The notes below the pieces were generated by a model, which saw nothing but the letters and a program-made list of their open reading frames with translations, searched no databases and was not told the origin of the DNA. From positions 1-38,182 of the IMG/VR virus record IMGVR_UViG_3300038809_000011: a DNA stretch of 38,182 nt. The stretch is one strand, 5' to 3'. This stretch comes from a virus. A program made the position numbers and the translations under genes. Positions within the stretch are counted from its first letter, which is position 1. The number at the start of each line of letters is the position of its first letter. Shown here piece after piece: positions 9,273 to 38,182 of the stretch.

Positions 9273-9645
9273 TGTATTGATGAAAATTTATAACGCGCTA
9301 CTTGCAAATGACTACATTTCTGAAGCATGTGCAGGTCGCATTAAATTCTATGAATATCCTGAAAATGGTGATGTGTCACAACCATATATCATTATTGATC
9401 CGTTAGACTCACCGTTACCTTCTGATTTTGCTGATGATGATTGGCTATATTACATTCATCTATTCCAGGTTGATATTCGTTCACAGAAGCGAATTACAAC
9501 TGAGAACTTAGCGCTTGAAGTCGACAAGGTACTGTGGAAATTAGGTTTCGGACAATACGGTGGTGGCGATAACGAATTCGATAAAGCAACTAATGTATTC
9601 AGAATTGCCCAAAATTATAGGGGCAAGACAAGAAAAGGAGATTAA
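9265..9645 (+). CDS. Tail terminator/completion-like protein
   Basis: 126 aa, immediately upstream of the major tail protein. Confidence 0.45.
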   Translation: MADVLMKIYNALLANDYISEACAGRIKFYEYPENGDVSQPYIIIDPLDSPLPSDFADDDWLYYIHLFQVDIRSQKRITTENLALEVDKVLWKLGFGQYGGGDNEFDKATNVFRIAQNYRGKTRKGD

Positions 9646-9648
9646 AAA

Positions 9649-10254
9649 ATGGCTGATAAAAAATATTTAGCTTCAACAGGTGTTGACAAATTTTACTATG
9701 GTGTCTTAGGCACAGACGGAATGACAATTACAGCAACCGCACCAGAACGCGTGCAATTCTTACAAGATATTGATGTCGCAATGTCGTCAACTTTAGTACG
9801 TGCGCACGGTGACAACGTGACTGCAGAAATGGCAGTTTCTCACGGTGCAACTACCGTTACAGGTAACTTCCACAAATTACCACAATCAGACAAAGATGTG
9901 CTATTAGGTTTGGAAGTAGTAGACGGTTTATCTGGTTTAGGTTCAAGTGATAATCCACCTTACGTTGCAGTGGTGTTCGCTAAAACTTACGAAGATGGCT
10001 CAACTGAATATGTCGGTTTACCAAAAGGTAAATTCTTAAAAACTAACATCACAGGTACATCTAAAACCGCTGAAACTTCATTCGGACAAGATGCAATTTC
10101 TGCTGAATTTATGGACCGCAACGTGACAGGCTTCACTCGCCCACAATCAGTAGTAACAGGTGCTGATGAAGCAGGTGCTACAACTAACCGTGATGCTATT
10201 TTCATGAAAGTTTTCGGTAAAGCATACCCAACTGAAACTGTACCTGCAGGTTAG
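9649..10254 (+). CDS. Major tail protein
   Basis: 201 aa. It precedes the G/GT chaperone pair and tape measure. An intrinsic terminator follows one gene downstream. Confidence 0.75.
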   Translation: MADKKYLASTGVDKFYYGVLGTDGMTITATAPERVQFLQDIDVAMSSTLVRAHGDNVTAEMAVSHGATTVTGNFHKLPQSDKDVLLGLEVVDGLSGLGSSDNPPYVAVVFAKTYEDGSTEYVGLPKGKFLKTNITGTSKTAETSFGQDAISAEFMDRNVTGFTRPQSVVTGADEAGATTNRDAIFMKVFGKAYPTETVPAG

Positions 10255-10266
10255 GAGTTGAACTAA

Positions 10267-10536
10267 ATGGCAACTTATAAAGCAAATATGACCTTCATCG
10301 GTAATAAAGAATATAAGACTTTTGAAGCGAACGTACCTTTTGAAATGTCAGAAGAACGTGCAGCGGAATTAGTTCGAAATATTCAAAACAACTTTCCTAA
10401 CTTTGAATTGGAACGTTTAGACAAAGACTTGTCTGAATTGACAGTGAAAGAGTTGAAAGAATTATTGGATGAAGAAGGTATCGAATACCAAGCGACTGAT
10501 AAGAAGGCAGATTTAATTAAATTGGCTGAGGTTTAA
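10267..10536 (+). CDS. Small protein with C-terminal SAP/HeH-like helix-extension-helix motif
   Basis: 89 aa. LSELTVKELKELLDEEGIEYQATDKKADLIKLAE resembles Rho-N/SAP/HeH motifs. Confidence 0.45.
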   Translation: MATYKANMTFIGNKEYKTFEANVPFEMSEERAAELVRNIQNNFPNFELERLDKDLSELTVKELKELLDEEGIEYQATDKKADLIKLAEV

Positions 10537-10551
10537 TTCCTCAGCTTTTTT
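10525..10551 (+). terminator. Intrinsic terminator after the major-tail gene pair
   Basis: GCTGAGG (10525-10531) pairs with CCTCAGC (10539-10545), with a 7-nt loop containing the stop codon, followed by TTTTTT. Confidence 0.8.
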
Positions 10552-10573
10552 ATTTAATTTAAGGAGAATAGAA

Positions 10574-10924
10574 ATGGCAGACATTCAAAGAAAAGCAATT
10601 AAGTTATTTAAACAAGTTGATGATTTAACAAAAGACCCAGAATATGAAACTTATTACACTAGCCCTTACATTTCATTGCGTGACACGCGTGAAGCATGGG
10701 TTCTGAATAAAGAATTGGAAGACCCTGAAAATGGTCTATCCCAAGATGAACGAATTGATAAATTAGTAGACTTTGTCGCTAATCGTGCTTTCAAAGGTCA
10801 ATTGACCAAAGAAGATATCGAAGACCGCTTAGTCGGTGGACTGCAAGAATTGAATGCAGTATTAGCGTTTGTTGCTTTTGGCCAAGACATTCAAGCAAAA
10901 AAGTCCCAGGCGAAGAAGAACTAA
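10574..10924 (+). CDS. Tail assembly chaperone (gpG analogue)
   Basis: 116 aa directly upstream of the tape measure. It ends shortly after a slippery heptamer. Confidence 0.75.
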   Translation: MADIQRKAIKLFKQVDDLTKDPEYETYYTSPYISLRDTREAWVLNKELEDPENGLSQDERIDKLVDFVANRAFKGQLTKEDIEDRLVGGLQELNAVLAFVAFGQDIQAKKSQAKKN

Positions 10925-11109
10925 CTGAAGAAGATTTTACGTTAGAAAAGCAAATCGAGTATTTAGATAACTTTGTTTTGAGCCTATTCAAAACAGGCAA
11001 AGACATTAACGAGATACTTGATATGCCGTATCACTACTCACTGCAGTTATTAAATGAAGAAACAAAACCAGTTAAGAAGAAATCGCTGATTGAAGCGTTT
11101 GGTGGTTAA
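10574..11109 (+). CDS. Tail assembly chaperone frameshift product (gpGT analogue, -1 shift at 10897-10903)
   Basis: The -1 frame is open from the heptamer to TAA at 11107-11109. It reads KKVPGEEELTEEDFTLEKQIEYLDNFVLSLFKTGKDINEILDMPYHYSLQLLNEETKPVKKKSLIEAFGG. Confidence 0.7.
10897..10903 (+). promoter_or_regulatory. Slippery heptamer A AAA AAG for programmed -1 frameshifting
   Basis: The zero frame reads GCA AAA AAG, which fits X XXY YYZ. Confidence 0.7.
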
Positions 11110-11132
11110 TAAATGAAGAAAGGAGGTAACAC

Positions 11133-14100
11133 ATGGTAGAACGTATTGAAGGTATGTCCATTGGCATGGACTTAGACAGTATTGCGGTTGAGCGTGGCTT
11201 AACAGGTCTGAAAGATAGACTGAAAACTGTTAATGCTGAAATGAGAAACCAATTATCTGTCTTTGATCGTGCGGACAAATCAGTAGATAAATATACGACT
11301 ATTATAGATAACCTTTCTGAAAAGATTAAAATTCAAGAGAAAATCGTAGCAAGCACGAAAGCAGAATTTGAAAAAATGACTGCTGAATATGGTGCGGGGT
11401 CTAAAGAAGCTGAAAAAGCAAAACGTGCATATGAAAATCAGTCAACTAGCTTGAACAATATGAAACGTTCGTTGACTCGAACGACTGATGACCTTGAAAA
11501 GTTCAGAAAAGAACAAGCTAAGCAAGACTCAACCTGGACGAAGATGTCTAATGGTGCGAAAGACTACGCTAAGAAATTAGATACAATCGCTGAAAAGACT
11601 AAAACAGTCGGTGACGGTTTAACCACAGGTCTGACTGTTCCGTTAGTAGGTATCAGTGGACTATTACTAAAACAAGCAAGTGATGCAGAAAGCTCACAAG
11701 CGCGCGTGCAAACTGCTTTAGGTTTAACAACTGATGAAGCAAAACAATTATCTGATGCAATTACTAATGTCTATGAAGCAGGTTGGGGCGAGTCGTTTGA
11801 CAATGTGGAAGAAACTGCTAAGGCAGTCGTAACACAACTAGGTTACATTGACGACCCGCAACAACTATCCAACATTATTAAGAACGCTCAAATGCTAGCT
11901 GATACGTTTGGCATGGATACAAATGAAGCACTTCGTGGTGTCAATGCTTTAATGGAAACATACGGCATGACTGCAGAAGAAGCATTCGACTATATGACTG
12001 TCGGTGCGCAAAATGGTTTAGACAAGACCCAAGAACTAGGGGATAACCTGTCTGAATATGCACCATTGTTAGCTGATGCAGGATATGAAGCGGATGAGAT
12101 GTTCGCAGCACTTCAAGCAGGGTTAGATGCAGGTGCTTACAACTTAGATAAAGTTAACGACTTGATCAAAGAGTTCTCAATTCGTGTGGGCGATGGCACA
12201 ATCAAGACCGCAGTTGAAGAAATGGGTGGCGAATGGCAATCACTATACGACACTTGGGAAGCATCGGGCGGAACGGTTGACGAGTTATTCAGATTATTAG
12301 GTGACAAGTTAGCTGGTATTAAAGACCCAATGGAAAAGCAAAATGCCTTAACAACCATTTGGGGTTCATTAGGTGAAGATGCAGGGGCTAAGGTAGTTGA
12401 AGCAGTGGCGGGTGCTACTGATAGCTACAATGATGTAAATGGCGCTGCAAAGAACGCTAGTGACACAATGGAACAGACGTTTGGTGAACGTTTCCAAAGT
12501 TTAATGCGTGAAGCAGGTGACTCACTATTACCAATCGGTAACACGCTAATGGATATGGCAGAAGACTATTTGCCTAAGTTAGATAAAGCAGTGCAGGAAA
12601 CGTCTGAATGGATAGCTGGGTTAGATGAAGATACTGTTCAATTAGCAATTGGCATTGGTGGTGTGTTATTAGTCGCTGGTCCAACACTTAGCTTACTAGC
12701 AAATGGCGTCACAATCATTTCAGGTTTAGCAGGTGCATTTAGTGCTACAAGCGCAGTTATTGCAGGTGCAGGTGGTTTTACAGCATTGATGACAGGTACG
12801 ATTTTACCTATCGGTGCTACATTAGCTGCAATCACAGGTCTTACCTGGTATATGAACCAAGATGCGTTCCAAGCGTTTGACGGATTTGGCAATAAGGTTT
12901 CTGATACAACAGACGATGCAGTCACTGACTATATCAATATGTCGTCTGAAACAACTACTGAACTAGACTTAATGTTTATTCGTCAAGAAGAAATCACAGA
13001 CGAAAAAGCAGCAGTCTTAACAGGTAAATTTGACTCACTTTACGGCACGATAAAAAAAGCAGCAGAAGATAATTTTACAGAACAGACAACTATTCTGACT
13101 GATTTCTTTGCTGAAACAGGCGTGCTGACAGATGAGAACGAAACGAATATCTTAGCTAAAATGCAAGAGAACTACTTAAATCGTGAAACTGCTTTGAATG
13201 AATATAATGATCGTGCAACTGAAATTGTGAATACCGCGAATGAAGAAAATCGGTCATTAACCCAAGCGGAATACGATGAGTTAGCTTACTTGCAAAAGAT
13301 TGCACAAGACTACGCGTTGACGGAATTATCTGCAAGTGAAGAAGAACAATTAGTCTTACGTGAAACAATGTCGCAAATGAAAGATGAGATTGATGCAGAA
13401 ACTGCTGCGAATACCGTTAAGCGTTCAATGGAAGCGCGCGACCAAGTCATCGCTGATGCAAACACTAAGTACGAAGAAGTAGTAGCGGCAGCTATCTATC
13501 AACGTGATGAAATGGGAACTTTAACTGCTGAAGAAGCAGATAAAATCATCGCTGAAGCAGGTAGACAACGTGACGGTGCAGTTGAGAAAGCACAAAATAT
13601 GCACTCAGAAGTAATTAAAGCAGCACGCGCACAATCTGGTGAACATGTGAATGAAGTCAACTGGGCGACTGGTGAAATCATGTCTAAATGGGACACGATG
13701 ATGGTTTCTATTGTAAACGGTATGTGGAACTTGCCGGGCAAGATGGGCAATGCGCTAAGCGGTCAATCGTGGAGAGTCCAAAATGCAATTCAAGGCATGA
13801 TGAACGCCGGTATTACTAAAGTTGAGAAAGGTGTTAACTCGATGATACGGGCAATGAACGTTATCTTTGAAGCATTGGACTCAGACATTAGTTTCTCGCG
13901 CGTGACATTACCACGAGTTGGCTTTAGTGACAGTCCATCCACACAACAATCAGGTAATATGGCATATGCGAATGGTACAGGTATTGGCGGACATCCAGGT
14001 GGCCCTGCAATCGTAGGTGACGGTGGAATGAAAGAGCTAATCGCTTTACCAAGCGGTGAAATGTTCATGTCACCTGATACTGATACCATGATTGATTTAC

Positions 14101-22041: not shown

Positions 22042-22425
22042 ATGGATTGGCAACAAGTAATTGAACGAATCGCAGTAAATGCAGGTTATATCGTCACGAT
22101 TTTCACGGCGATCAAATACTTCGTTTTGAATCCGTTGGAAAAACGGCGAAAAAAAGAAGATGATGATAAAGTTGCAGAACAGAACGCATTCCAAGAGCGC
22201 ATTTTACAAAAGACTTCCGAAAATCAAAAACCGCTAGTTGAAGCGCTTGATAGCTTGAAACAACTTATCGAGGACACACGGCGTGAAAGTGATAATCTAC
22301 ATAAGATTGCTGATGTTAATGTAAAAGCGATTGGGGAATTAGACGAGGAAATGGGTAACCACGACAAGCGCATTTATCGGTTGGAAGTTAAAAATGGTTT
22401 TATAAAAATGGAGGAAGAAAAATAA
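22042..22425 (+). CDS. N-terminally membrane-anchored coiled-coil protein of the lysis cassette
   Basis: 127 aa. One TM segment (AGYIVTIFTAIKYFVL) followed by a charged coiled coil. It abuts the holin gene. Confidence 0.55.
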   Translation: MDWQQVIERIAVNAGYIVTIFTAIKYFVLNPLEKRRKKEDDDKVAEQNAFQERILQKTSENQKPLVEALDSLKQLIEDTRRESDNLHKIADVNVKAIGELDEEMGNHDKRIYRLEVKNGFIKMEEEK

Positions 22426-22697
22426 TGGACATTTTAAATTATGTCGTTCAAGAAGGGCTGGTAATGATACCAGTCCTTTTTATTATTGGTGAGATTATTA
22501 AAGGTACGGAAACGATTGAAAATAAGTATATCCCAGTTATTTTATTGGTGTTATCTTTGGCATTAACACCTTTCGTTTTAGGCGGATACACAGCAGATAA
22601 TATCGTGCAGTCTGTTTTGGTTGCTGGTGTAACTGTATTTGGTAATGAGTTGATTAAGCAATCAAGTAAAGGAGAAAAAATAAATGGTAGTAACTAA
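22425..22697 (+). CDS. Holin
   Basis: 90 aa. Two or three hydrophobic segments and a charged C-terminus (KQSSKGEK). It lies directly upstream of, and overlaps, the endolysin. Confidence 0.75.
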   Translation: MDILNYVVQEGLVMIPVLFIIGEIIKGTETIENKYIPVILLVLSLALTPFVLGGYTADNIVQSVLVAGVTVFGNELIKQSSKGEKINGSN

Positions 22698-23835
22698 AAT
22701 CCAAAAACACTTAACGCTAGTAAATAGCGGCACTAAGGGAACTAACACCCCTGAATGGATTATCTTCCATTTTGTAGGTGCAGCAGGTCAAGCAAAAGAT
22801 AATGCTAACTATTTCCGTTCAGTGTATCGTGGCGCTTCCGCTCATTATTTTGTTGACCCTAAAAACATTATTCAAGTTGTCGAAGACACGACACCTGCTT
22901 GGCATATTGGAGATGGTTACAATTCAGGCAAAGGTACATACAATGGCTATGTTAAAGCCAAAGGCGCCACCAACACTAATGCGATTGGTATTGAGCTTTG
23001 CCAAGATACGTCAACAGGTTCTGATGTATGGCATTGGGATTTTGAAAAGGAAACGGTTGATAATGCTGAATGGCTAATCAATCAATTGCAAGTAAAATAC
23101 GGTATTGACGATGATCACATTATTCGTCACTATGATGCTTCAGGCAAATTGTGTCCTGGTAACTGGCAATATGACAACTGGGCTAAATGGACTGCTTTCA
23201 AGAAACGTTTAGCAGGAGTACCACAATCAACATCTACTGCAGTAGCAGTTTCAGATGGTAAGCCATCAGTTACAGGCATGTACCTTGTGAAAGCAGGCGA
23301 CACATTAGCTAAAATTGCGAAAGCAAATAAGGTGACTGTTAACGATTTAGTGAAATGGAATGACTTAGACAATCCAAACTTAATCTTCCCAGAAACGAAA
23401 CTATTCATTAAAGCACCAACGGTTAAAGGAACTACTGATATTGATGCCTTAGCTCGTAAAACAATTAATGGCGAATTTGGTTCTGGCGAAGCCCGTAAGA
23501 AAGCATTAGGCACTAATTATGACAAGGTACAAGCTCGAGTGAATGAAATCTTGTTAGGCACTTCAGCAACTGTAACTAAGACTACTAAGCAATTAGCCCA
23601 AGAAGTTTTAGATGGTAAACATGGTTTAGGAGATGCACGTAAGAAATCATTAGGTTCTCGATATGATGAAGTGCAAGCAGAAGTTAACAAGATGCTAGCT
23701 GGCAAATCAGTAGATACGCTTGCTAGAGAAGTTTTGGACGGTAAGTGGGGTAATGGTGTAGAACGTAAGAATAGATTAGTGAAAGCTGGGTATGACTACA
23801 ATGCGGTGCAAGCTAGAGTTAATCAGTTGATGTAA
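22684..23835 (+). CDS. Endolysin: N-acetylmuramoyl-L-alanine amidase (Amidase_2/PGRP-like) + LysM + three CW_7 (Cpl-7-like) repeats
   Basis: Amidase pattern: FHF ... SAHYFVD ... AWHIGDG ... NAIGIELC ... RHYDASGKLCPG. LysM lies at about 23281-23411 (YLVKAGDTLAKIAKANKVTVNDLVKWN). Three ~40-aa repeats of G-x-G-x-x-R-K-x-x-LG-x-x-Y-x-x-VQ-x-x-VN lie at 23437-23832. Confidence 0.85.
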   Translation: MVVTKIQKHLTLVNSGTKGTNTPEWIIFHFVGAAGQAKDNANYFRSVYRGASAHYFVDPKNIIQVVEDTTPAWHIGDGYNSGKGTYNGYVKAKGATNTNAIGIELCQDTSTGSDVWHWDFEKETVDNAEWLINQLQVKYGIDDDHIIRHYDASGKLCPGNWQYDNWAKWTAFKKRLAGVPQSTSTAVAVSDGKPSVTGMYLVKAGDTLAKIAKANKVTVNDLVKWNDLDNPNLIFPETKLFIKAPTVKGTTDIDALARKTINGEFGSGEARKKALGTNYDKVQARVNEILLGTSATVTKTTKQLAQEVLDGKHGLGDARKKSLGSRYDEVQAEVNKMLAGKSVDTLAREVLDGKWGNGVERKNRLVKAGYDYNAVQARVNQLM

Positions 23836-23876
23836 TTGTATGACAATCATGCGTTAAAATTTAAAAAATAAAGCAC

Positions 23877-24010
23877 AAAAGGACAGCTCGTTATGAGTTG
23901 CCCTCTTTTTTTGTTGGATCTTATACTTCAATGTTTTGTGTTTTATATCTTGCCTCTCTTAAAATGTAGCAAAAAATCGCAAGCGTCTTGTTTTTCAGTA
24001 TGTTTTTATT
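23877..24010. repeat. Left copy of the ~135-nt imperfect direct repeat flanking the moron cassette
   Basis: Aligns by eye with 25584-25721. Both start AAAAGG + terminator hairpin + T-run + GTTG, and share TTTTATATC(T/G)TGCCTCTC (17 of 18 identical). Confidence 0.75.
23881..23912 (+). terminator. Intrinsic terminator after the endolysin (imperfect stem)
   Basis: GGACAGCTC pairs with GAGTTGCCC (one mismatch, one G-U), with a 5-nt loop, followed by TCTTTTTTT. Confidence 0.6.
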
Positions 24011-24088
24011 TTCAATAAAAGCATGAGATTTTTATTATCTGTTATTATATAATAAATTAAAAATCTAATAGTTGGGAATGTGGTTTAA

Positions 24089-25465
24089 TTGGTCTATAGA
24101 AATAAGAATTTTGAAAATGTATCAAAGTATAACGATATTATAAGTAATTTCTATGAAACAATAAAATCTTTAGATGCATATTTAAAAAATATTCAAAAAG
24201 GTATGCGAGTTGTAAATATAATTGATAGAGGTGGAGATGTTAGGCCGTTAGAATTACTTTTAAACTTGAGAGTAGGATATTCTGATGGAATAATTTCTTT
24301 AGAAGAATATGAAAAAAGGTTGAACAAAATAAAAGAAGATTATGATAGGGCAGAAATGATAGATGAAGCGTTAGTTGAAGACGAAAAGGGAATAACCTCA
24401 AATAATCCTTATTTTGCAAGACTTATACACATTCTTAACACTAGTAATAATAATACAAAGAATGAATTATTAAAAATCCAAGAAATGACATTCGTTAATA
24501 TATTGAGCATTTTTGAAAGTAGTATAAGTTCCCTACTAGTTCTTTATTTTTCTAAAATTCACCAATCGACGAACGATATAGATAAGAGAAAAATTCAATA
24601 TTCTGACATTTCTTTTGTAGATTCGAAAGATGAATTGAAAGAATATTTTGTTTCTGATTTTATCAAAAGTAAAATGTATGAAAAATTTGAGAGTTGGATT
24701 GAATTTGCTTTAGATAAATTAACAAAAATGGATAAGAATACCTTGAAAAAGGAGTTTGGACAAGATATTGAAGAGATATCTGTAGCATATATATATAGAA
24801 ACCTTGTACTACATAATCAAGGAATTGTAAATTACGAATCTTTAAAGTCCGGAAAAATTAACAGCTATAACAACGGCGATAAATTAGAAATTGATGAAAA
24901 ATATATTTATCACATCAAAAATATACTGTATAAGCTATTCTCTATAATTTCTCTACAATGTATTAAAAAATTTAAAAATAATGATAAATTTAGTGAACAA
25001 TTTGCACTAAATAATATTAATTCTATCGCAGTTGAAATAATGAATGAGAATGATTATTTAGGATCGGCCATAATTTTTGAGCAACTTAATATCTATTGTA
25101 ATAAGGATTTAGATGATAATTATGAATTTAGAAATTTTAAAAGAATTGTATATTATAATAGCCTACTGAATAGCTTATTATTGAATGATGAAAGTAAAGA
25201 AGATCTGTTAAAAGATTATGATAAATTTCTTGAAATTAATAAAGAATCTTTTGAATCTGGAGATTTGTTTGCTGAAGGTATTTTTAAATATAAATCATCC
25301 AATGAATTTGACATAAATTATTTGGATACCATTATGGATGAATTTTGTGATTCTAGAAGTGCAAAAATTAATGTTCTCCTGGATTGGCCAATGTTTAAAT
25401 TAATAGAGAATGATGTCGATTTTATTGAATATAAAGAAAAAATGTTGTATTATAGAGATGTTTAA
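24089..25465 (+). CDS. AT-rich moron-encoded 458-aa protein with HEPN-like R-x4-H motif (candidate abortive-infection/defence RNase)
   Basis: Long ORF in a very AT-rich segment. YRNLVLHNQG has R at 24797-24799 and H at 24812-24814, preceded by helical segments (ILSIFESSISSLLVLYF ... WIEFALDKL). The C-terminal ~200 aa look helical-repeat-like. The start is uncertain (TTG 24089 or ATG 24203). Confidence 0.5.
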   Translation: MVYRNKNFENVSKYNDIISNFYETIKSLDAYLKNIQKGMRVVNIIDRGGDVRPLELLLNLRVGYSDGIISLEEYEKRLNKIKEDYDRAEMIDEALVEDEKGITSNNPYFARLIHILNTSNNNTKNELLKIQEMTFVNILSIFESSISSLLVLYFSKIHQSTNDIDKRKIQYSDISFVDSKDELKEYFVSDFIKSKMYEKFESWIEFALDKLTKMDKNTLKKEFGQDIEEISVAYIYRNLVLHNQGIVNYESLKSGKINSYNNGDKLEIDEKYIYHIKNILYKLFSIISLQCIKKFKNNDKFSEQFALNNINSIAVEIMNENDYLGSAIIFEQLNIYCNKDLDDNYEFRNFKRIVYYNSLLNSLLLNDESKEDLLKDYDKFLEINKESFESGDLFAEGIFKYKSSNEFDINYLDTIMDEFCDSRSAKINVLLDWPMFKLIENDVDFIEYKEKMLYYRDV

Positions 25466-25494
25466 GCCTAAGAACTTTGATAGGAGGAATATTT

Positions 25495-25554
25495 ATGACT
25501 TCAACTGAAGATAAAAATATTAACGAGGTTCGAGATGTTATCATAAAAAAATAA
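25495..25554 (+). CDS. 19-codon micro-ORF (MTSTEDKNINEVRDVIIKK)
   Basis: ATG lies 6 nt after the strong SD TAGGAGGA (25481-25488), 29 nt downstream of the moron ORF and upstream of a terminator. Confidence 0.35.
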   Translation: MTSTEDKNINEVRDVIIKK

Positions 25555-25587
25555 AATTTTGCCTGTAGAGTAACTCTTAAGGTAAAA

Positions 25588-25621
25588 GGGTAACTCGTAA
25601 ATGAGTTATCCTATTTTTTTT
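25588..25621 (+). terminator. Intrinsic terminator after the moron and micro-ORF
   Basis: GGGTAACTC pairs with GAGTTATCC (one G-U), with a 6-nt loop, followed by TATTTTTTTT. Confidence 0.75.
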
Positions 25622-25692
25622 GTTGATTTTTATTATCCAATCGTTTATATTTTATATCGTGCCTCTCCCAAAGTGTGGCACACAACTTCAAG

Positions 25693-25718
25693 CACCCTGT
25701 TTTGCAGGGTGTTTTTTT
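25693..25718 (+). terminator. Intrinsic terminator
   Basis: CACCCTG pairs perfectly with CAGGGTG, with a 5-nt loop, followed by seven T. Confidence 0.8.
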
Positions 25719-25723
25719 ATTGA

Positions 25724-25753
25724 GCCCTCACTTAATTGTGGGGGGCTTTTTTT
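25724..25753 (+). terminator. Intrinsic terminator
   Basis: GCCCTCAC pairs with GTGGGGGGC (one bulge, one G-U), with a 6-nt loop, followed by seven T. Confidence 0.65.
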
Positions 25754-25809
25754 ATTTTGCCTATTTTTCGGCAATTATCTTAATTGGTGTGAATTTTGGA
25801 AAACCTTTC

Positions 25810-25840
25810 GAGTAGCTTTTGAGTAGCTTTTGAGTAACTG
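25810..25840. repeat. Tandem 11-nt repeat GAGTAGCTTTT x2 plus partial GAGTAACTG
   Basis: Read directly from the sequence. It abuts the left TGTTGACC pair. Confidence 0.8.
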
Positions 25841-26055
25841 TTGACCCAATGTTGACCAAACGTGTCTAAAACCTTGATATATCAGCACCTATTACCCCGG
25901 CCACCGGTATTATAAGCTTAAAATAGAACATAATATAAATTTTAAGCAACTAGCTTAAACGTTGATATAACAGCGTTTAGGCTTTTTTTATTGCTTTAAA
26001 GGTCGTCAAACAATATCAAAGAATACAAACTTCTGTTGACCATTTGTTGACCAAA
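25839..26055. other. Candidate attP: two pairs of TGTTGACC arm-type repeats flanking a repeat-rich core region
   Basis: TGTTGACC occurs at 25839, 25850, 26034 and 26045, all in the same orientation with 11-nt phasing within each pair. Between the pairs lie TTGATATATCAGC (25874-25886) and TTGATATAACAGC (25962-25974), the inverted repeat GCTTAAAAT/ATTTTAAGC (25916-25924/25939-25947), and a G+C island CCCCGGCCACCGG (25895-25907). The region lies directly downstream of int. Confidence 0.5.
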
Positions 26056-26056
26056 A

Positions 26057-27223
26057 TTACAACTTGTCTGCTGCTTTAAATGATTCTTCAATTAGTCGAT
26101 TCGTTTCTTTCGATTCCTTCTGTTCAACTGATCTAACTACATGACTGTACTTGTTTAAAGTCGTACTAATATCATTGTGTCCAGCACGTCTACTAATGTA
26201 GGTATATGCCATTTTATGATTTAGTAACCAGGTAATGTGTGTATGCCTTAAGTTATGATTGGTGAAGCGTGGAATATGGATGCCTGCTTCTGCTAAGTAC
26301 CTAGTCAGACTTTTATTAATCGTGTTGTTACTATATAACTCACTGTCTGCATTAATGAAGACCAGGTTTCGATTCACATAACCATTCTTCACTTGCCAAG
26401 TACGCAACATTTTAAGATATTTTAGTGTGTAACTATCAACTGTTATTTCTCTATCTGAAGATACATTCTTGGTAGGTGCGAAATCCTTATTAATGAAACT
26501 CCAAGTCTTTTTGATGCTGACGACACCGTTCGTCCAATCAATCGCATCCCAAGTCATTCCTGCAGTTTCAGAAAAGCGTGTACCTAAAGATAAGGAAGTC
26601 AAATTAAAGACTGCCTGCACCTGCATGTCGTCCACATTAATATGACTGATTAAAACTGCACGTAACTTATTAATTTGGTCATCATCTAAAGCCATAGTAT
26701 TTTCTTCGTTTCTTCTGATTAAACCAACTGATTTTACATCTTCAGCAGGGTTGAAACGTATCTTACCTAACTTGACTGCTTTAGATAGGGCAGACTTGCA
26801 ATGTCTGTTTACTTTATCAACCGTTTCCTTGTAATGCTCTTTGGCTACCTTATTTCCACGTTCATCAATGCCGTATGCGTACCAGTTGATGAACTGTTGG
26901 TATTTTACTTCAGTTAGATTTTCAAGCGTTACACGGCCAAAATATTCGCTTACAAGCTGTATTGAACGCTCATAATGTGATTGGGTTTTATCAGTAATCG
27001 TATTCTTTTTATAAGTGACATACCATTCTTGAAAGTAATCAGCAAAAGTGATTTTCCCACCATGAACATCTGTGCCATGATCCAATCGGTATTCTAATTC
27101 ATTCGCCCACACATTCGCTTCACTTTTGGTTTGAAAAGTTTCTGAAAATTGTTGCAGCTCACCGTCTATCCGTCTGCTGACGACTGCACGGTATTTTTTA
27201 CCACGTTTTGAAATACTAGCCAT
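26057..27223 (-). CDS. int: Tyrosine recombinase-type phage integrase
   Basis: 388 aa. The N-terminal SAM-like/arm-binding region begins ISKRGKKYRAVV. The C-terminal catalytic pattern is TRFSE ... HNLRHTHITWL ... GHNDISTTLNKYSHV (R ... H-x-x-R ... H ... Y). Confidence 0.9.
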   Translation of the reverse strand: MASISKRGKKYRAVVSRRIDGELQQFSETFQTKSEANVWANELEYRLDHGTDVHGGKITFADYFQEWYVTYKKNTITDKTQSHYERSIQLVSEYFGRVTLENLTEVKYQQFINWYAYGIDERGNKVAKEHYKETVDKVNRHCKSALSKAVKLGKIRFNPAEDVKSVGLIRRNEENTMALDDDQINKLRAVLISHINVDDMQVQAVFNLTSLSLGTRFSETAGMTWDAIDWTNGVVSIKKTWSFINKDFAPTKNVSSDREITVDSYTLKYLKMLRTWQVKNGYVNRNLVFINADSELYSNNTINKSLTRYLAEAGIHIPRFTNHNLRHTHITWLLNHKMAYTYISRRAGHNDISTTLNKYSHVVRSVEQKESKETNRLIEESFKAADKL

Positions 27224-27340: not shown

Positions 27341-28099
27341 CTAATAAAGTGCTATACGTTCTACATAAATCATAGGTATTTCTAATTCAGCACCCATTAC
27401 AGTTTCGTAGTTTGTAGTACCTAAAGAAGTGCCTGTAAAAGTTACATAGTCATCGTCAATTATTCTTCCGTCAGGAGTATCCTCTTCATAGCCAATTAAA
27501 ACCACTGTGTCATAATTATCATATAGTGCTACACGATGTTGAACTTCACCCTCACCTTGCATAGTTTGAATTATTGTACCTTCTAAAGTTACCAATTCAC
27601 CCATATAATCATCGGGGTATCTCATCAAATCGTCATAAGTCAAATCAGTTCTCGCATTATCCAAGTCACTTTGTAACTGAGCTTCAATACTCTCAGATTG
27701 AGCCTTAGATTCACTTTGATATTTTGCAATAGATTCAGACTCAGCTATGCTTTCTGATTCAGCTTTGGACTCACTTGCAGCTATTGATTCACTTTTAGCT
27801 TTTGCGATAGATTCTGATTCAGCAATACTTTCAGATTCTGTCATACTTGAAGATTCTTCAACTTTTGATTCTACTGATGTCGAACTACTGCTCTCATCTG
27901 CTTCAACAGATTCAACAACTTCTGAGCTACTACTTGATGCTGACGAAGTGTCATTTTGCGTACCGTTCGGAGTAATTAAATTGATAATTGAAATAGCGAC
28001 TAAAGCTGACAACCATACTTTCCAATTTTTATACCATTTTTTATCTGTATCTTTTACCCAATTTACATATTTCGACCAAACTTCTCTTAACTTTTCCAT
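27341..28099 (-). CDS. Single-pass membrane protein with Ser/Glu-rich SESIA tandem repeats and a C-terminal beta-rich domain (superinfection-exclusion candidate)
   Basis: 252 aa. TM segment VWLSALVAISIINLI. Repeats SESIAESESIAKAKSESIAASESKAESESIAESESIAKYQSESKAQSESIE. The C-terminal domain resembles that of the upstream neighbour. GGAGG SD upstream. Confidence 0.6.
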   Translation of the reverse strand: MEKLREVWSKYVNWVKDTDKKWYKNWKVWLSALVAISIINLITPNGTQNDTSSASSSSSEVVESVEADESSSSTSVESKVEESSSMTESESIAESESIAKAKSESIAASESKAESESIAESESIAKYQSESKAQSESIEAQLQSDLDNARTDLTYDDLMRYPDDYMGELVTLEGTIIQTMQGEGEVQHRVALYDNYDTVVLIGYEEDTPDGRIIDDDYVTFTGTSLGTTNYETVMGAELEIPMIYVERIALY

Positions 28100-28145
28100 A
28101 CTTTTTCCTCCTAAATATGATATATTGTATTTGCAACAACTAGAA

Positions 28146-28183
28146 GTCCTATCTCAGCTCCCAACTCTGATAGGGCTTTTTTT
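28146..28183 (+). terminator. Plus-strand-oriented intrinsic terminator between two minus-strand genes
   Basis: GTCCTATC (28146-28153) pairs with GATAGGGC (28169-28176), with one G-U pair. Seven T (28177-28183) follow on the plus strand only. Confidence 0.5.
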
Positions 28184-28185
28184 GT

Positions 28186-28689
28186 TTATTCTTCAATATA
28201 AGAACTTTGAAGAATAGGCATCGACATATCGTTATTCCCTTTATAAATACCATAGATGGTAATTTCATCCCCTACCTTCAATTCTGCATCTAAGTCAAAA
28301 ATTTGGACCTCGTACATGCCGTAACCATCTCCACTTTTTGTAGAAAATAATATGGTAGGGAAAGCAGAACCATCGTCGATAATACTTTCGACTGTTCCTT
28401 TTGCAAATAGTTTCGTTCCTTCTTCATATTGATCAGCATTTGCGGTTACAAAGTCAACTTCGACAGCTTCTTTTTTTAATTTATTATCTAATTCTTCTTG
28501 TGAAGGTTCAGATTCACTCTCTAATGATGACTGATTACTTTCTTGTTCAAATTCAGTAGGTCCAGCAATGCTACCTAAAATATATAGAAATGCAAACACT
28601 AGAATTGGTATAAAGATTATCCCAATAACTATTTTCTGCCAAAGTGGCCTTTTAGGTGCTTCAAACGTTTCTCTTTTCTTTCTCCCCAT
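28186..28689 (-). CDS. Single-pass membrane protein with C-terminal beta-rich domain (superinfection-exclusion candidate)
   Basis: 167 aa. N-terminal basic stretch, TM segment IVIGIIFIPILVFAFLYILGSI, an acidic linker and a ~100-aa domain. Confidence 0.6.
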   Translation of the reverse strand: MGRKKRETFEAPKRPLWQKIVIGIIFIPILVFAFLYILGSIAGPTEFEQESNQSSLESESEPSQEELDNKLKKEAVEVDFVTANADQYEEGTKLFAKGTVESIIDDGSAFPTILFSTKSGDGYGMYEVQIFDLDAELKVGDEITIYGIYKGNNDMSMPILQSSYIEE

Positions 28690-28700
28690 ACCAATACCTC

Positions 28701-29096
28701 CTAAATTTCCCCACGCAACTTATACATGTATATCGCACTTTCAACAATCTGATCAGGTAGATTCAAATCGTCTGCAATTTCGTATAAAAAAACTGCATCT
28801 TCAGTTTGGTACTTCTCAATATTTTCAATTGGTATTAATTTAGCGTACGACCACCTGCGAGCAGTTTCTTCTTCTTTGGCAAATATTTTATAATTTGTAA
28901 TATTTTTCCGTGTTGAAGTTTCGTAGTGCCCAATTTCTTCAGCAATGGCAACTATGGATTCTTCAAAACTTAACTTGTTATTAATATAAACAGTTTTATT
29001 TACGATTAATCCTGAAATACCTTCCGGCATATCATCCCTAAATTCAAAATTTAACTTATCTTCATATTTAGCAATCCATGATTCTATTTCATTCAT
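28701..29096 (-). CDS. ImmA/IrrE-like (DUF955-type) protein with degenerate metal-binding motif
   Basis: 131 aa directly downstream of the repressor. IAEEIGH occupies the place of AHELGH (codons at 28926-28940). The downstream EEETARRWSYAKLIP resembles the family's E-x-x-AN-x-FA-x-x-LLxP segment. Confidence 0.55.
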   Translation of the reverse strand: MNEIESWIAKYEDKLNFEFRDDMPEGISGLIVNKTVYINNKLSFEESIVAIAEEIGHYETSTRKNITNYKIFAKEEETARRWSYAKLIPIENIEKYQTEDAVFLYEIADDLNLPDQIVESAIYMYKLRGEI

Positions 29097-29104
29097 CTAA
29101 CCAC

Positions 29105-29524
29105 CTAATCTTGTTCTTCAATTAATTTATTAATATAATCATGTAATTCTTTTTCCTTATTAAAGTTTTCATCTTTATGTGCAGCAATTAAAATATCGTC
29201 TTTTTTATTAATCGCAGTTTGTTCATCAAGTTGGTGTTTAGCATATTTGTAGACTTTGGTTTGTCTTAAATCGTCTAGTTGATTGTAGATGTCGGTGATA
29301 TTACCACTTTCAATACGATTAATCCCTAAAATAAACTCAGGGGATACTCCAAAAGCTTTTGCGAATTCAGAAACTCTATTTAATGGAAATTGTCTAGATC
29401 TATTAAAATATCTTGAAACTGCAGATTTAGCCATACCAACTCGTCTAGCAATTTCACTGATAGACAAGTTCTTTTCATCTTTTAAATTATCTAAAATATC
29501 CATAATTTCATCATTGCTTCTCAT
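29105..29524 (-). CDS. CI-like repressor (XRE-family HTH)
   Basis: 139 aa. HTH LSISEIARRVGMAKSAVSRYFN. It is divergent from the cro-like gene across an operator-rich spacer. Confidence 0.85.
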   Translation of the reverse strand: MRSNDEIMDILDNLKDEKNLSISEIARRVGMAKSAVSRYFNRSRQFPLNRVSEFAKAFGVSPEFILGINRIESGNITDIYNQLDDLRQTKVYKYAKHQLDEQTAINKKDDILIAAHKDENFNKEKELHDYINKLIEEQD

Positions 29525-37916: not shown

Positions 37917-38182
37917 ATGAAGAAGAAAATTATCGTAACTTTACAATCGCTGGTAGTCGTTTATCTAATTACTAACATGATTATTAATAACTTAAATCAA
38001 TTTGATTTACTGTCAACTGCAATGGGTTTGCTTGGGCTATTTGGGAATATCCTTTTAACGCATAAGAAAGAAAGTACGTTTGCATTAAACATGACAAATA
38101 ACGTATTAGGCTTCATCTTAAGTTTTCAAAACCGATTCTTTGCAGAAGTACTAATGAACGCATATTACTTCATCACACAGGC
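37917..38182 (+). CDS. pnuC: PnuC-like transporter, N-terminal part (continues at nt 56 through the overlap)
   Basis: ATG 6 nt after GGGGAG. Hydrophobic N-terminus MKKKIIVTLQSLVVVYLITNMII ... There is no stop before the window end, and it is in frame with 3-413. Confidence 0.65.
   Translation, partial: MKKKIIVTLQSLVVVYLITNMIINNLNQFDLLSTAMGLLGLFGNILLTHKKESTFALNMTNNVLGFILSFQNRFFAEVLMNAYYFITQ
38128..38182. repeat. Terminal overlap copy 2 (identical to 1-55)
   Basis: Same 55-mer as nt 1-55. It lies inside an open reading frame, which suggests an assembly or circularisation overlap rather than physical ends. Confidence 0.95.

Follow-up and report, generated by a model that had tools for sequence, protein, structure and literature searches.

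An AT-rich cassette encoding a predicted HEPN protein between the endolysin gene and attP of a temperate phage genome

The IMG/VR virus record IMGVR_UViG_3300038809_000011 was analysed over its whole length of 38,182 nucleotides (nt), hereafter the window. Between the endolysin gene and the putative phage attachment site (attP) of this genome lies an AT-rich segment (23877-25721) bounded by two diverged copies of a terminator-containing repeat. A preliminary description of this segment had read it as a horizontally acquired moron and had guessed that it carries anti-phage cargo. We found that the cassette is compositionally foreign, that it is near-identical in an unrelated phage, and that it is missing from a close relative that keeps the lysin terminator. 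The reading that we favour, with moderate confidence and on the strength of sequence comparison, is that the segment is a self-contained moron cassette, exchanged by recombination in terminator junctions and carrying a HEPN abortive-infection or defence module that would be expressed in the prophage.

The cassette and its flanking terminator repeat

The base composition of the cassette was assessed by GC windows and by the GC content at third codon positions (GC3). The interior (24013-25583) had a GC content of 24.8% as against 37.7% in the rest of the window, the minimum among all 1.57-kb windows, and GC3 of the cargo open reading frame (ORF) was 0.19, compared with 0.29-0.39 in the structural genes. 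The sharp drop in GC reported earlier from hand counts was thus reproduced, and the counts themselves (15, 7 and 27 G+C) were exact.

The segment at 23869-25814 (1946 bp) is the only DNA common to the window and the 11.9 kb of the phage sequence L002. It spans from just after the lysin stop codon to the start of the integrase arm-type repeats, and L002 encodes exactly the same 458-amino-acid (aa) protein. L002 is otherwise unlike the window phage: it has a lysin of the Amidase_2-SPOR type, different tail genes and a different att region, which is homologous to that of L021/L022 (tRNA-Thr site). The core of the common segment (23891-25608) is 100% identical in the two phages. Of the 13 differences, one is a mismatch at 25609, and the remaining 12 are confined to 23869-23890 and 25742-25814, which make up the outer 95 bp (P about 2e-15). 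This clustering at the edges indicates that the outer stretches of about 20 nt and about 70 nt are older junction sequence that both phages already had, and that the core was exchanged very recently by crossovers inside the junctions. The homology stops within about 20-70 nt of the repeat ends and halts exactly where the attP arm-type repeats start.

The similarity of the two flanks was then examined. A repeat search gave an ungapped repeat of 107 nt (23906-24012 vs 25615-25721) with 74% identity and a spacing of 1709, and gapped local alignment of 23877-24012 with 25584-25721 gave about 74% identity and a score of 60. The corresponding score in 2000 dinucleotide shuffles was 10.7±1.7 (maximum, 20), and the next best score elsewhere in the window was 18. 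The diverged repeat therefore lies where the preliminary description had placed it, and its two copies are significantly similar. AAAAGG begins the left and right copies alike. The blocks TTTTATATCTTGCCTCTC (23941-23958) and TTTTATATCGTGCCTCTC (25650-25667), which have no third match in the window, had been singled out earlier as a 17-of-18 match; they are present at these positions, but a match of this kind is no more than chance would give at 74% identity, the expected longest perfect run being about 12 in a 136-column alignment. Since such a block is about what chance predicts, it is not evidence of selection, and we rejected it as a selected motif; matches to the exact pattern in public collections were unrelated sequence or chance.

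Folding of the two copies revealed a marked difference between them. The right copy folded at -37.9 kcal/mol (z = -6.1) into a first terminator (T1), a small hairpin and a strong second terminator (T2), whereas the left copy folded at -20.9 kcal/mol (z = -0.8). The left copy has retained its own first terminator (T1'), and its hairpin equivalent to T2 reached -6.4 kcal/mol vs -24.1 kcal/mol in the right copy, where CACCCTGTTTTGCAGGGTG forms a perfect hairpin at 25693-25711. The decay of the second hairpin in the left copy, noted earlier, was thereby corroborated. A scan of the window for terminator-like sites returned 6 against 0.4 expected. Three terminators lie 3' of the cargo, T1 (-13.8 kcal/mol), T2 (about -20 kcal/mol) and a third, T3 (-13.8 kcal/mol), in agreement with the claim that the insert has a terminator of its own. 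The junction appears to be intact in the right copy with T3 and to be decaying in the left copy.

Both ends of this junction have counterparts in a close relative of the window phage, the lysin of which is 86% identical (L006, L021, L022 and L024). In this relative a homologous lysin terminator is kept, and two small, unrelated ORFs stand where the window has the cassette; beyond these come a T3-like terminator and then attP-int or, where the phage is integrated, tRNA-Thr and host genes. T3 resembles the terminator preceding attP in L021, and the lysin terminator of that phage is a homologue of the T1 hairpin. Aligned over four T1 sequences, the hairpin has 97% of its cells paired and includes a compensatory change, from C-G to U-A, at one pair. 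Because the cassette-free relative keeps T1 with other ORFs, T1 is a native element of the phage backbone and the slot behind it is variable. Collectively, the segment shared with L002 at 99.3% identity, the cassette-free relative and the foreign composition support the horizontal acquisition that the preliminary description had proposed. Neither of the two outcomes that it had named as refuting this reading, flanks lacking significant similarity or a segment carried by all relatives with phage-like composition, was observed.

Other candidates in the repeat and intergenic DNA were also considered. The small ORFs in the repeat copies (23893-24018, 41 aa; 25601-25723, 40 aa) are not conserved coding sequence, because an indel shifts the reading frame across the conserved block. 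A search of Rfam at E<=1 for a known RNA family gave just two sub-threshold chance matches, and no tRNA gene was found in the window. Separately, the right copy contains a candidate small RNA of about 60 nt (25623-25720), composed of a promoter-like TTGATT-17-TATATT (25623-25651), a hairpin GUGCC…GGCAC with the C-rich loop CUCUCCC (25659-25681) and T2. The candidate has no match in Rfam, and its counterpart elements in the left copy are decayed.

Some observations concern the relatives themselves. In L021, a 521-aa protein with a SIR2_2 domain (9866-11431; Pfam 2e-18) adjoins the integrase and is likely a defence gene in a lysogeny-side slot. The integration site of the L021/L022 phage is the 3' end of a tRNA-Thr(cgt) gene (L022, 8424-8496). 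In L025, the lysin of which is 71% identical to that of the window, a 275-aa TIR_2-domain protein (475-1302) is encoded just upstream of the holin and lysin.

The cargo protein, its family and the micro-ORF

The one long ORF that had been reported in the insert encodes the 458-aa protein. It consists of an N-terminal helical region, a HEPN domain of the RiboL-PSP type at about aa 105-300 and a helical-repeat domain at about aa 300-458. A word-indexed protein search returned only the protein itself, and an exhaustive HMMER search recovered 87 relatives at E<1e-3, mostly of 430-480 aa, the best being 27-31% identical. Named members of this family, mainly from coagulase-negative staphylococci, are all annotated as hypothetical protein. 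Alignment of 41 sequences showed no variation at E143, R237, H242, N243 and N357. The core of the family, (F)xRRN(L/I)x(V/T)HNxG(I/V)VN, also given as the consensus RRNLxVHNNGxVN, constitutes the canonical R-x4-H HEPN motif.

The relation to the Pfam family PF18735 (RiboL-PSP-HEPN) was assessed through the members of the family. Subgroup P0088-P0092 matches PF18735 over nearly the whole model, and P0089 and P0090 exceed its gathering score (28.8 and 33.7 vs 28.4). Alignment of this subgroup with the window family by hhalign gave a probability of 100% and an E value of 1e-49 over 320 columns. The window protein itself did not match PF18735 even at E 0.1, and 3 of the 41 family members matched at E<0.01. 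Given that it falls below the threshold and is linked through hhalign, the window protein is a remote relative of PF18735 and not a formal member. Anantharaman et al. (PMC3710099) describe a distant relationship between RiboL-PSP-HEPN and the lactococcal abortive-infection proteins AbiD/AbiF. In PADLOC-DB v2 the window protein had no match at E<=1, and the 41 homologues had three single weak matches (RTasHEPN, Cmr5 and CARF_HEPN; E 0.0025-0.009). The protein is probably of the HEPN type and is predicted to cut RNA.

AlphaFold (AF2) models of the full protein and of the HEPN region were entirely helical, with mean confidence scores (pLDDT) of 89 and 90. The C-terminal 150 residues weakly resemble a TPR/alpha-solenoid, and their profile matches the kinesin-light-chain TPR at E 5e-4. 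Naming the protein by structure was tried and abandoned: the full model gave generic alpha-solenoid/TPR matches (E>=0.2) and the HEPN-only model nothing meaningful. Profile searches of PDB sequences gave no match for the HEPN domain.

We next considered where the homologues reside. The closest relatives with retrievable DNA all lie directly 3' of an endolysin gene, each behind a terminator, and the L036 homologue is one gene away from an Amidase_3 lysin. Seven lysin architectures are found directly upstream of family members: Amidase_2-LysM-CW_7 (window), Amidase_2-SPOR (L002), Glucosaminidase-CHAP-LysM-PG_binding (L028), Amidase_2-CW_7-ChW (L029), Amidase_2-CHAP-SH3b (L031/L032, a Staphylococcus saprophyticus prophage), CHAP-GH25-LysM (L033) and Amidase_3-LysM-PG_binding (L035). 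The homologue genes are AT-rich relative to their flanks (GC 0.25-0.29 vs 0.34-0.43), a contrast seen in five loci besides the window. The family is absent from the 50,697 deposited phage genomes searched. The post-lysin position is the classical lysogenic-conversion slot in temperate phages of gram-positive bacteria (PMC3952083).

In two staphylococcal-type prophages, the cassette is followed by a YolD-like gene (L031, 5455-5906; L033, 4780-5204), which is preceded by a LexA-box-like sequence (CGAACAAGTGTTC and GAACATACGTTCG). In L013, the distant chromosomal homologue P0088 has a divergent HTH_XRE gene upstream, and it is followed by a 59-aa CxxC-containing ORF (9340-9519) behind an AGGAGG ribosome-binding site; this ORF is unrelated to the micro-peptides of the phage loci.

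The micro-ORF that had been noticed in the insert was found; it has 19 codons and an AGGAGG upstream. Charged micro-ORFs of 18-26 aa with a ribosome-binding site occur in four of six loci, namely the window, L028 (MQNLDNKQLRKEKDQIIVEKKKNKKK), L031 (MMPKNELENVEIKDTIKIN, overlapping the end of the homologue gene) and L033 (MLPKRVQESKTIDKKISK). The context of the ribosome-binding site is nearly identical in L028 (CTTTGGTAGGAGGAA) and the window (CTTTGATAGGAGGAA). When the downstream regions were shuffled, a comparable ORF with a ribosome-binding site arose in 1.4-2.5% of trials per locus. The criteria were fixed after the data had been seen, and the recurrence is therefore a strong suggestion and not proof; the micro-ORF is probably real. 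Charged residues (D/E/K/R) make up 37-54% of the micro-peptides, and hydrophobic segments are lacking, which speaks against a secreted signal. No other conserved partner gene was found in the window or in the homologue loci.

The leader of the cargo gene contains the TATAAT that the preliminary description had located there, as a match to consensus. A promoter scan of the AT-rich DNA returned 27 matches against 15.8 expected; since promoter matches are so frequent in such DNA, the promoter-like element is weak evidence. The L028 homologue is preceded by a perfect TGGTATAAT.

Proposed mechanism and alternative explanations

From left to right, the cassette comprises the lysin terminator of the left copy, a promoter-like AT-rich leader, the 458-aa HEPN gene, the micro-ORF, the intact T1 and T2, and T3. 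We propose that it moves by homologous recombination in terminator-containing junctions between co-infecting or co-resident phages, a step that the shared junction sequences support. The duplication may have arisen as a by-product of single-crossover (Campbell-type) insertion of a circular intermediate, which would leave a direct repeat of the region of homology and would also allow excision, or by the joining of junction sequences from two phage lineages. The Sak-type annealing protein of the phage belongs with the Rad52-like phage recombinases and, together with RusA, could support recombination between short, diverged sequences. A simple Campbell insertion of one period was ruled out as the last transfer between the window and L002, the identical block (23891-25741) being longer than the period; this last exchange fits a double crossover, in T1 and near T3, better. 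A transposon or integron cassette was likewise rejected: neither a transposase gene nor an IntI-type gene is present, terminal inverted repeats are absent, and apart from the phage integrase no recombinase is encoded nearby.

In the lysogen, transcription would start from the promoter of the cassette itself. The 458-aa protein would be a latent HEPN RNase that is activated by another infecting phage and stops the infection by cutting RNA, with the C-terminal repeat domain as its sensor or regulatory part and the micro-peptide as a regulatory partner, inhibitor or ligand. By analogy with HEPN proteins of abortive infection, a latent-RNase abortive-infection function appears the most likely one. 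The anti-phage cargo guessed at earlier is plausible because the protein is a HEPN-family member, and the cassette is a good candidate for a new prophage-carried anti-phage system because relatives fill the same slot in many unrelated phages. A bolder proposal, which we regard as speculative and somewhat doubtful, is that the cassette represents a new two-gene prophage defence family. Its HEPN RNase-TPR-like fusion would be gated by a co-transcribed intracellular peptide of 18-26 aa. The family would be a post-lysin specialist in temperate Bacillota phages and would spread terminator-to-terminator, recombination at the lysin terminator inserting it and leaving the duplicate.

Several findings weigh against the moron and defence-module reading. 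The repeat copies are 26% diverged, which argues against a recent in-situ duplication, and the block recently exchanged with L002 (23891-25741, one mismatch) exceeds one repeat period. A search for relatives with an empty site, as suggested in the preliminary description, found none in IMG/VR, JGI metagenomes or INPHARED, and additional copies of the repeat were not found there either. Pattern scans of IMG/VR and JGI metagenomes gave chance matches or the already known relative only, a lysin scan of GTDB genomes gave one remote match, and INPHARED blastn in near and distant modes gave nothing past 30-nt terminator matches. Lysin homologues at 55-59% identity were rejected as empty-site relatives, their layout being different, with many small genes after the lysin. 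The candidate promoter is a consensus match only, in AT-rich DNA; the micro-ORF is missing in two of the six loci (L035 and L036); and distant family members lie in ordinary chromosomal or cyanobacterial plasmid contexts. Searches of Pfam, NCBIfam, PHROG and PADLOC with the 458-aa protein were negative. For neither the whole model nor the HEPN-only model did Foldseek retrieve a solved HEPN structure (PDB, none at E<0.1), so that the protein is assigned to HEPN by its sequence and motif and not by its fold.

The divergence of the copies also bears on a quite possible, if tentative, alternative, namely that the repeat is not an insertion scar. Homologous terminator regions of two lineages would have been joined by module shuffling, and the exchange would have taken place via longer flanking homology. 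The two phages have 100% identical cargo, as against 26% divergence between the copies; T1 is a conserved lysin terminator that the cassette-free relative also has; and the length of the recently exchanged block fits this alternative as well. The same comparison of flanks was made in four other loci. L033 and L028 showed no duplication, as module shuffling would allow; L031 had a flanking terminator duplication of 30 nt with 87% identity (score 22 vs a shuffle maximum of 16), and L035 a borderline one (23 vs 22). With the window (score 60), the local terminator is thus duplicated in three independent lineages, which speaks against module shuffling, as does the scarcity of homology outside the repeat: between the window and L002 there is no longer flanking homology than the 20-70 nt or so described above.

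A toxin-antitoxin or addiction module is an unlikely explanation of the gene pair. On this view the HEPN protein would act as the toxin, and the 19-aa peptide would be its labile proteic antitoxin, bound to the helical-repeat domain. The pair would serve to maintain the prophage, or to kill cells from which it is lost, and any exclusion of phages would be incidental. HEPN proteins are common as toxins in toxin-antitoxin pairs (PMC3710099), a small gene with a strong ribosome-binding site lies immediately 3' of, or overlaps, the gene end in four of the six loci, and no other partner gene is conserved. An antitoxin of 18-26 aa downstream of its toxin would be unusual, though, and the peptide is missing in L035 and L036. 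There is no MNT partner, and HepS provides an example of a solo HEPN protein that is latent without an antitoxin (PMC13043305).

The position of the family raises the question of whether the protein is an accessory of phage lysis or late functions, working with the lysin in lysis timing or in late shut-off of host RNA. The gene does strictly adjoin the lysin gene, on the late-operon strand, in seven lineages. We nevertheless consider this very unlikely: an intrinsic terminator separates lysin and gene in every locus inspected, the composition is foreign, the gene is absent from the closest relative and is paired with seven lysin architectures, and distant homologues lie far from phage genes. 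An RRNPP-like system, in which the TPR-like domain binds the mature micro-peptide as a cell-cell or intracellular signal gating the nuclease, is extremely improbable: a TPR-like receptor is followed by a tiny ORF and Rap, PlcR, Rgg and NprR are among the weak Foldseek matches (E about 2), but these matches are not significant, the peptides are highly charged without a signal sequence or a hydrophobic SHP-like tail, no helix-turn-helix (HTH) output domain is present, and no RRNPP-HEPN link was found in the literature searched.

The phage genome and comparison with known systems

The window corresponds to the full length of the JGI metagenome contig Ga0418683_000306. Its ends (1-55 and 38128-38182) form an exact 55-nt direct repeat. 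This terminal overlap indicates that the contig assembled as a circle and that the phage genome, of about 38.1 kb, is complete; the phage is temperate, of the siphovirus type, with a low-GC Bacillota host. Since the named lysin homologues come from Aerococcus, Facklamia and Fundicoccus, an Aerococcaceae-like member of Lactobacillales is our tentative guess at the host. INPHARED contains no sequenced phage similar to the window at the DNA level (blastn). The packaging, head and tail genes occupy the + strand up to 21244 and are followed by the holin gene (22425-22697) and the endolysin gene, which closes the late operon and adjoins the cassette on its left. On the - strand, the tyrosine integrase gene is followed by lysogeny genes, which encode two membrane or secreted-looking proteins, an IrrE/M78-type peptidase and an HTH repressor, and the early region beyond them contains Ant, Sak, HNH, DnaC-like and RusA genes. 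The features of the cassette and its neighbours are listed in Table 1.

Table 1. Features of the cassette and its immediate neighbours in the window
Feature	Position	Strand	Remarks
Endolysin, Amidase_2 + LysM + 3x CW_7	22684..23835	+	Pfam Amidase_2 6e-22, LysM 3e-13, CW_7 1e-49; PHROG endolysin 3e-67
Segment common to L002	23869..25814	+	Whole lysin-attP interval; 99.3% identity (blastn)
Left repeat copy	23877..24012	+	Lysin terminator T1' (hairpin 23880-23904 + U-run), block 23941-23958, decayed second hairpin (about 23981-24005)
Promoter-like element	24040..24053	+	TGTTATTAT (extended -10 type) overlapping TATAAT 24048-24053; consensus match only
Cargo gene, 458 aa, TTG start	24089..25465	+	87 homologues; invariant HEPN residues; hhalign; AF2
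Codons for R237-N-L-V-L-H242 (R-x4-H HEPN motif)	24797..24814	+	R237, H242 and N243 invariant in 41 sequences
Micro-ORF, 19 aa, MTSTEDKNINEVRDVIIKK	25495..25554	+	Perfect AGGAGG at 25482-25487, seven bases upstream
Right repeat copy	25584..25721	+	T1 (25587-25612 + U8), block 25650-25667, small hairpin 25659-25681, T2 (25690-25714 + U7)
Third terminator T3	25722..25760	+	-13.8 kcal/mol; older junction sequence, about 88% common to L002
attP region	25815..26056	.	Arm-type direct repeats; assigned from position beside integrase
Tyrosine integrase, right neighbour of cassette	26057..27223	-	Pfam Phage_integrase 3e-23; PHROG integrase 9e-63

In the attP region, the repeat search found the direct repeats CTGTTGACC…TGTTGACCAAA at 25838-25860 and 26033-26055, together with GAGTAGCTTTT units at 25811-25837; as their position beside the integrase gene suggests, these repeats and units are probably arm-type binding sites of the integrase. 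Elsewhere in the lysogeny module, another low-GC stretch (28751-29500, about 29%) covers the genes for the IrrE-like peptidase and the repressor. Two genes on the - strand between the integrase and repressor genes (27341-28689) encode products of 252 aa and 167 aa, both with an N-terminal hydrophobic segment, the former with a Ser/Glu-rich repeat of the ESESIA type. Pfam gave no significant match for either protein, and the pair looks like a second accessory slot of the superinfection-exclusion kind.

In Streptococcus thermophilus phages, a lysogenic-conversion module has been reported after the lysis module, and the moron concept is cited in that connection (PMC3952083). Like the morons of gram-positive temperate phages, the cassette is an extra transcription unit placed between the lysis module and the attachment site. 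Terminators of its own, a promoter-like leader and a deviating base composition are further points of likeness, and it is absent or different in close relatives while being common to otherwise unrelated phages. Unlike those morons, it is enclosed by a diverged direct repeat, 136 nt long, of the lysin terminator region, and similar terminator duplications occur in two other lineages.

The closest analogue of the 458-aa protein is HepS (PMC13043305), which the Salmonella prophage Gifsy-1 encodes and which acts in abortive infection as a solo HEPN protein. Both are single prophage-encoded proteins with an R-x4-6-H HEPN motif, both lack a conserved large partner gene, and both occupy an accessory slot of a temperate siphovirus. 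The window protein is much larger (458 aa), with an extra N-terminal helical region and a C-terminal helical-repeat domain, and its cassette has a conserved micro-ORF, a post-lysin slot and Bacillota hosts; the likeness is not based on a sequence relationship. With PF18735 (HEPN_RiboL-PSP), the protein shares the conserved glutamate and the RN-x3-H-x-x-G motif, and homologues pass the gathering score, whereas neither the window protein nor its nearest relatives reach the Pfam threshold. The window has neither an endoribonuclease L-PSP fusion nor a ParB neighbour, the contexts in which that family was first described, and the C-terminal repeat domain and post-lysin prophage context are outside that description.

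The HEPN-MNT and RnlA/LsoA-type modules resemble the cassette in having a predicted HEPN RNase effector and a small adjacent gene that could neutralise it. No MNT nucleotidyltransferase is present in the window or the homologue loci, and, unlike in RnlA/LsoA, there is no RnlB-like antitoxin; the neighbour has just 18-26 aa and lies downstream, and PADLOC gave no match. RRNPP systems differ from the cassette in that its TPR similarity is weak, its peptides are charged and without an export signal, and an HTH domain is wanting.

Post-lysin morons and HEPN-based abortive infection are already known. What the present analysis adds is a family that is labelled hypothetical everywhere, including in S. 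saprophyticus, S. xylosus, S. hominis and S. epidermidis, that is absent from PADLOC, and that is found repeatedly in the same prophage slot behind seven kinds of lysin. The conserved micro-peptide gene hints at peptide control of the nuclease, and the recurrent duplicated lysin terminators at the flanks hint at an insertion route. If the proposed reading holds, it would add a defence family to those of gram-positive cocci and would offer a concrete case for the study of how accessory genes move between unrelated phages.

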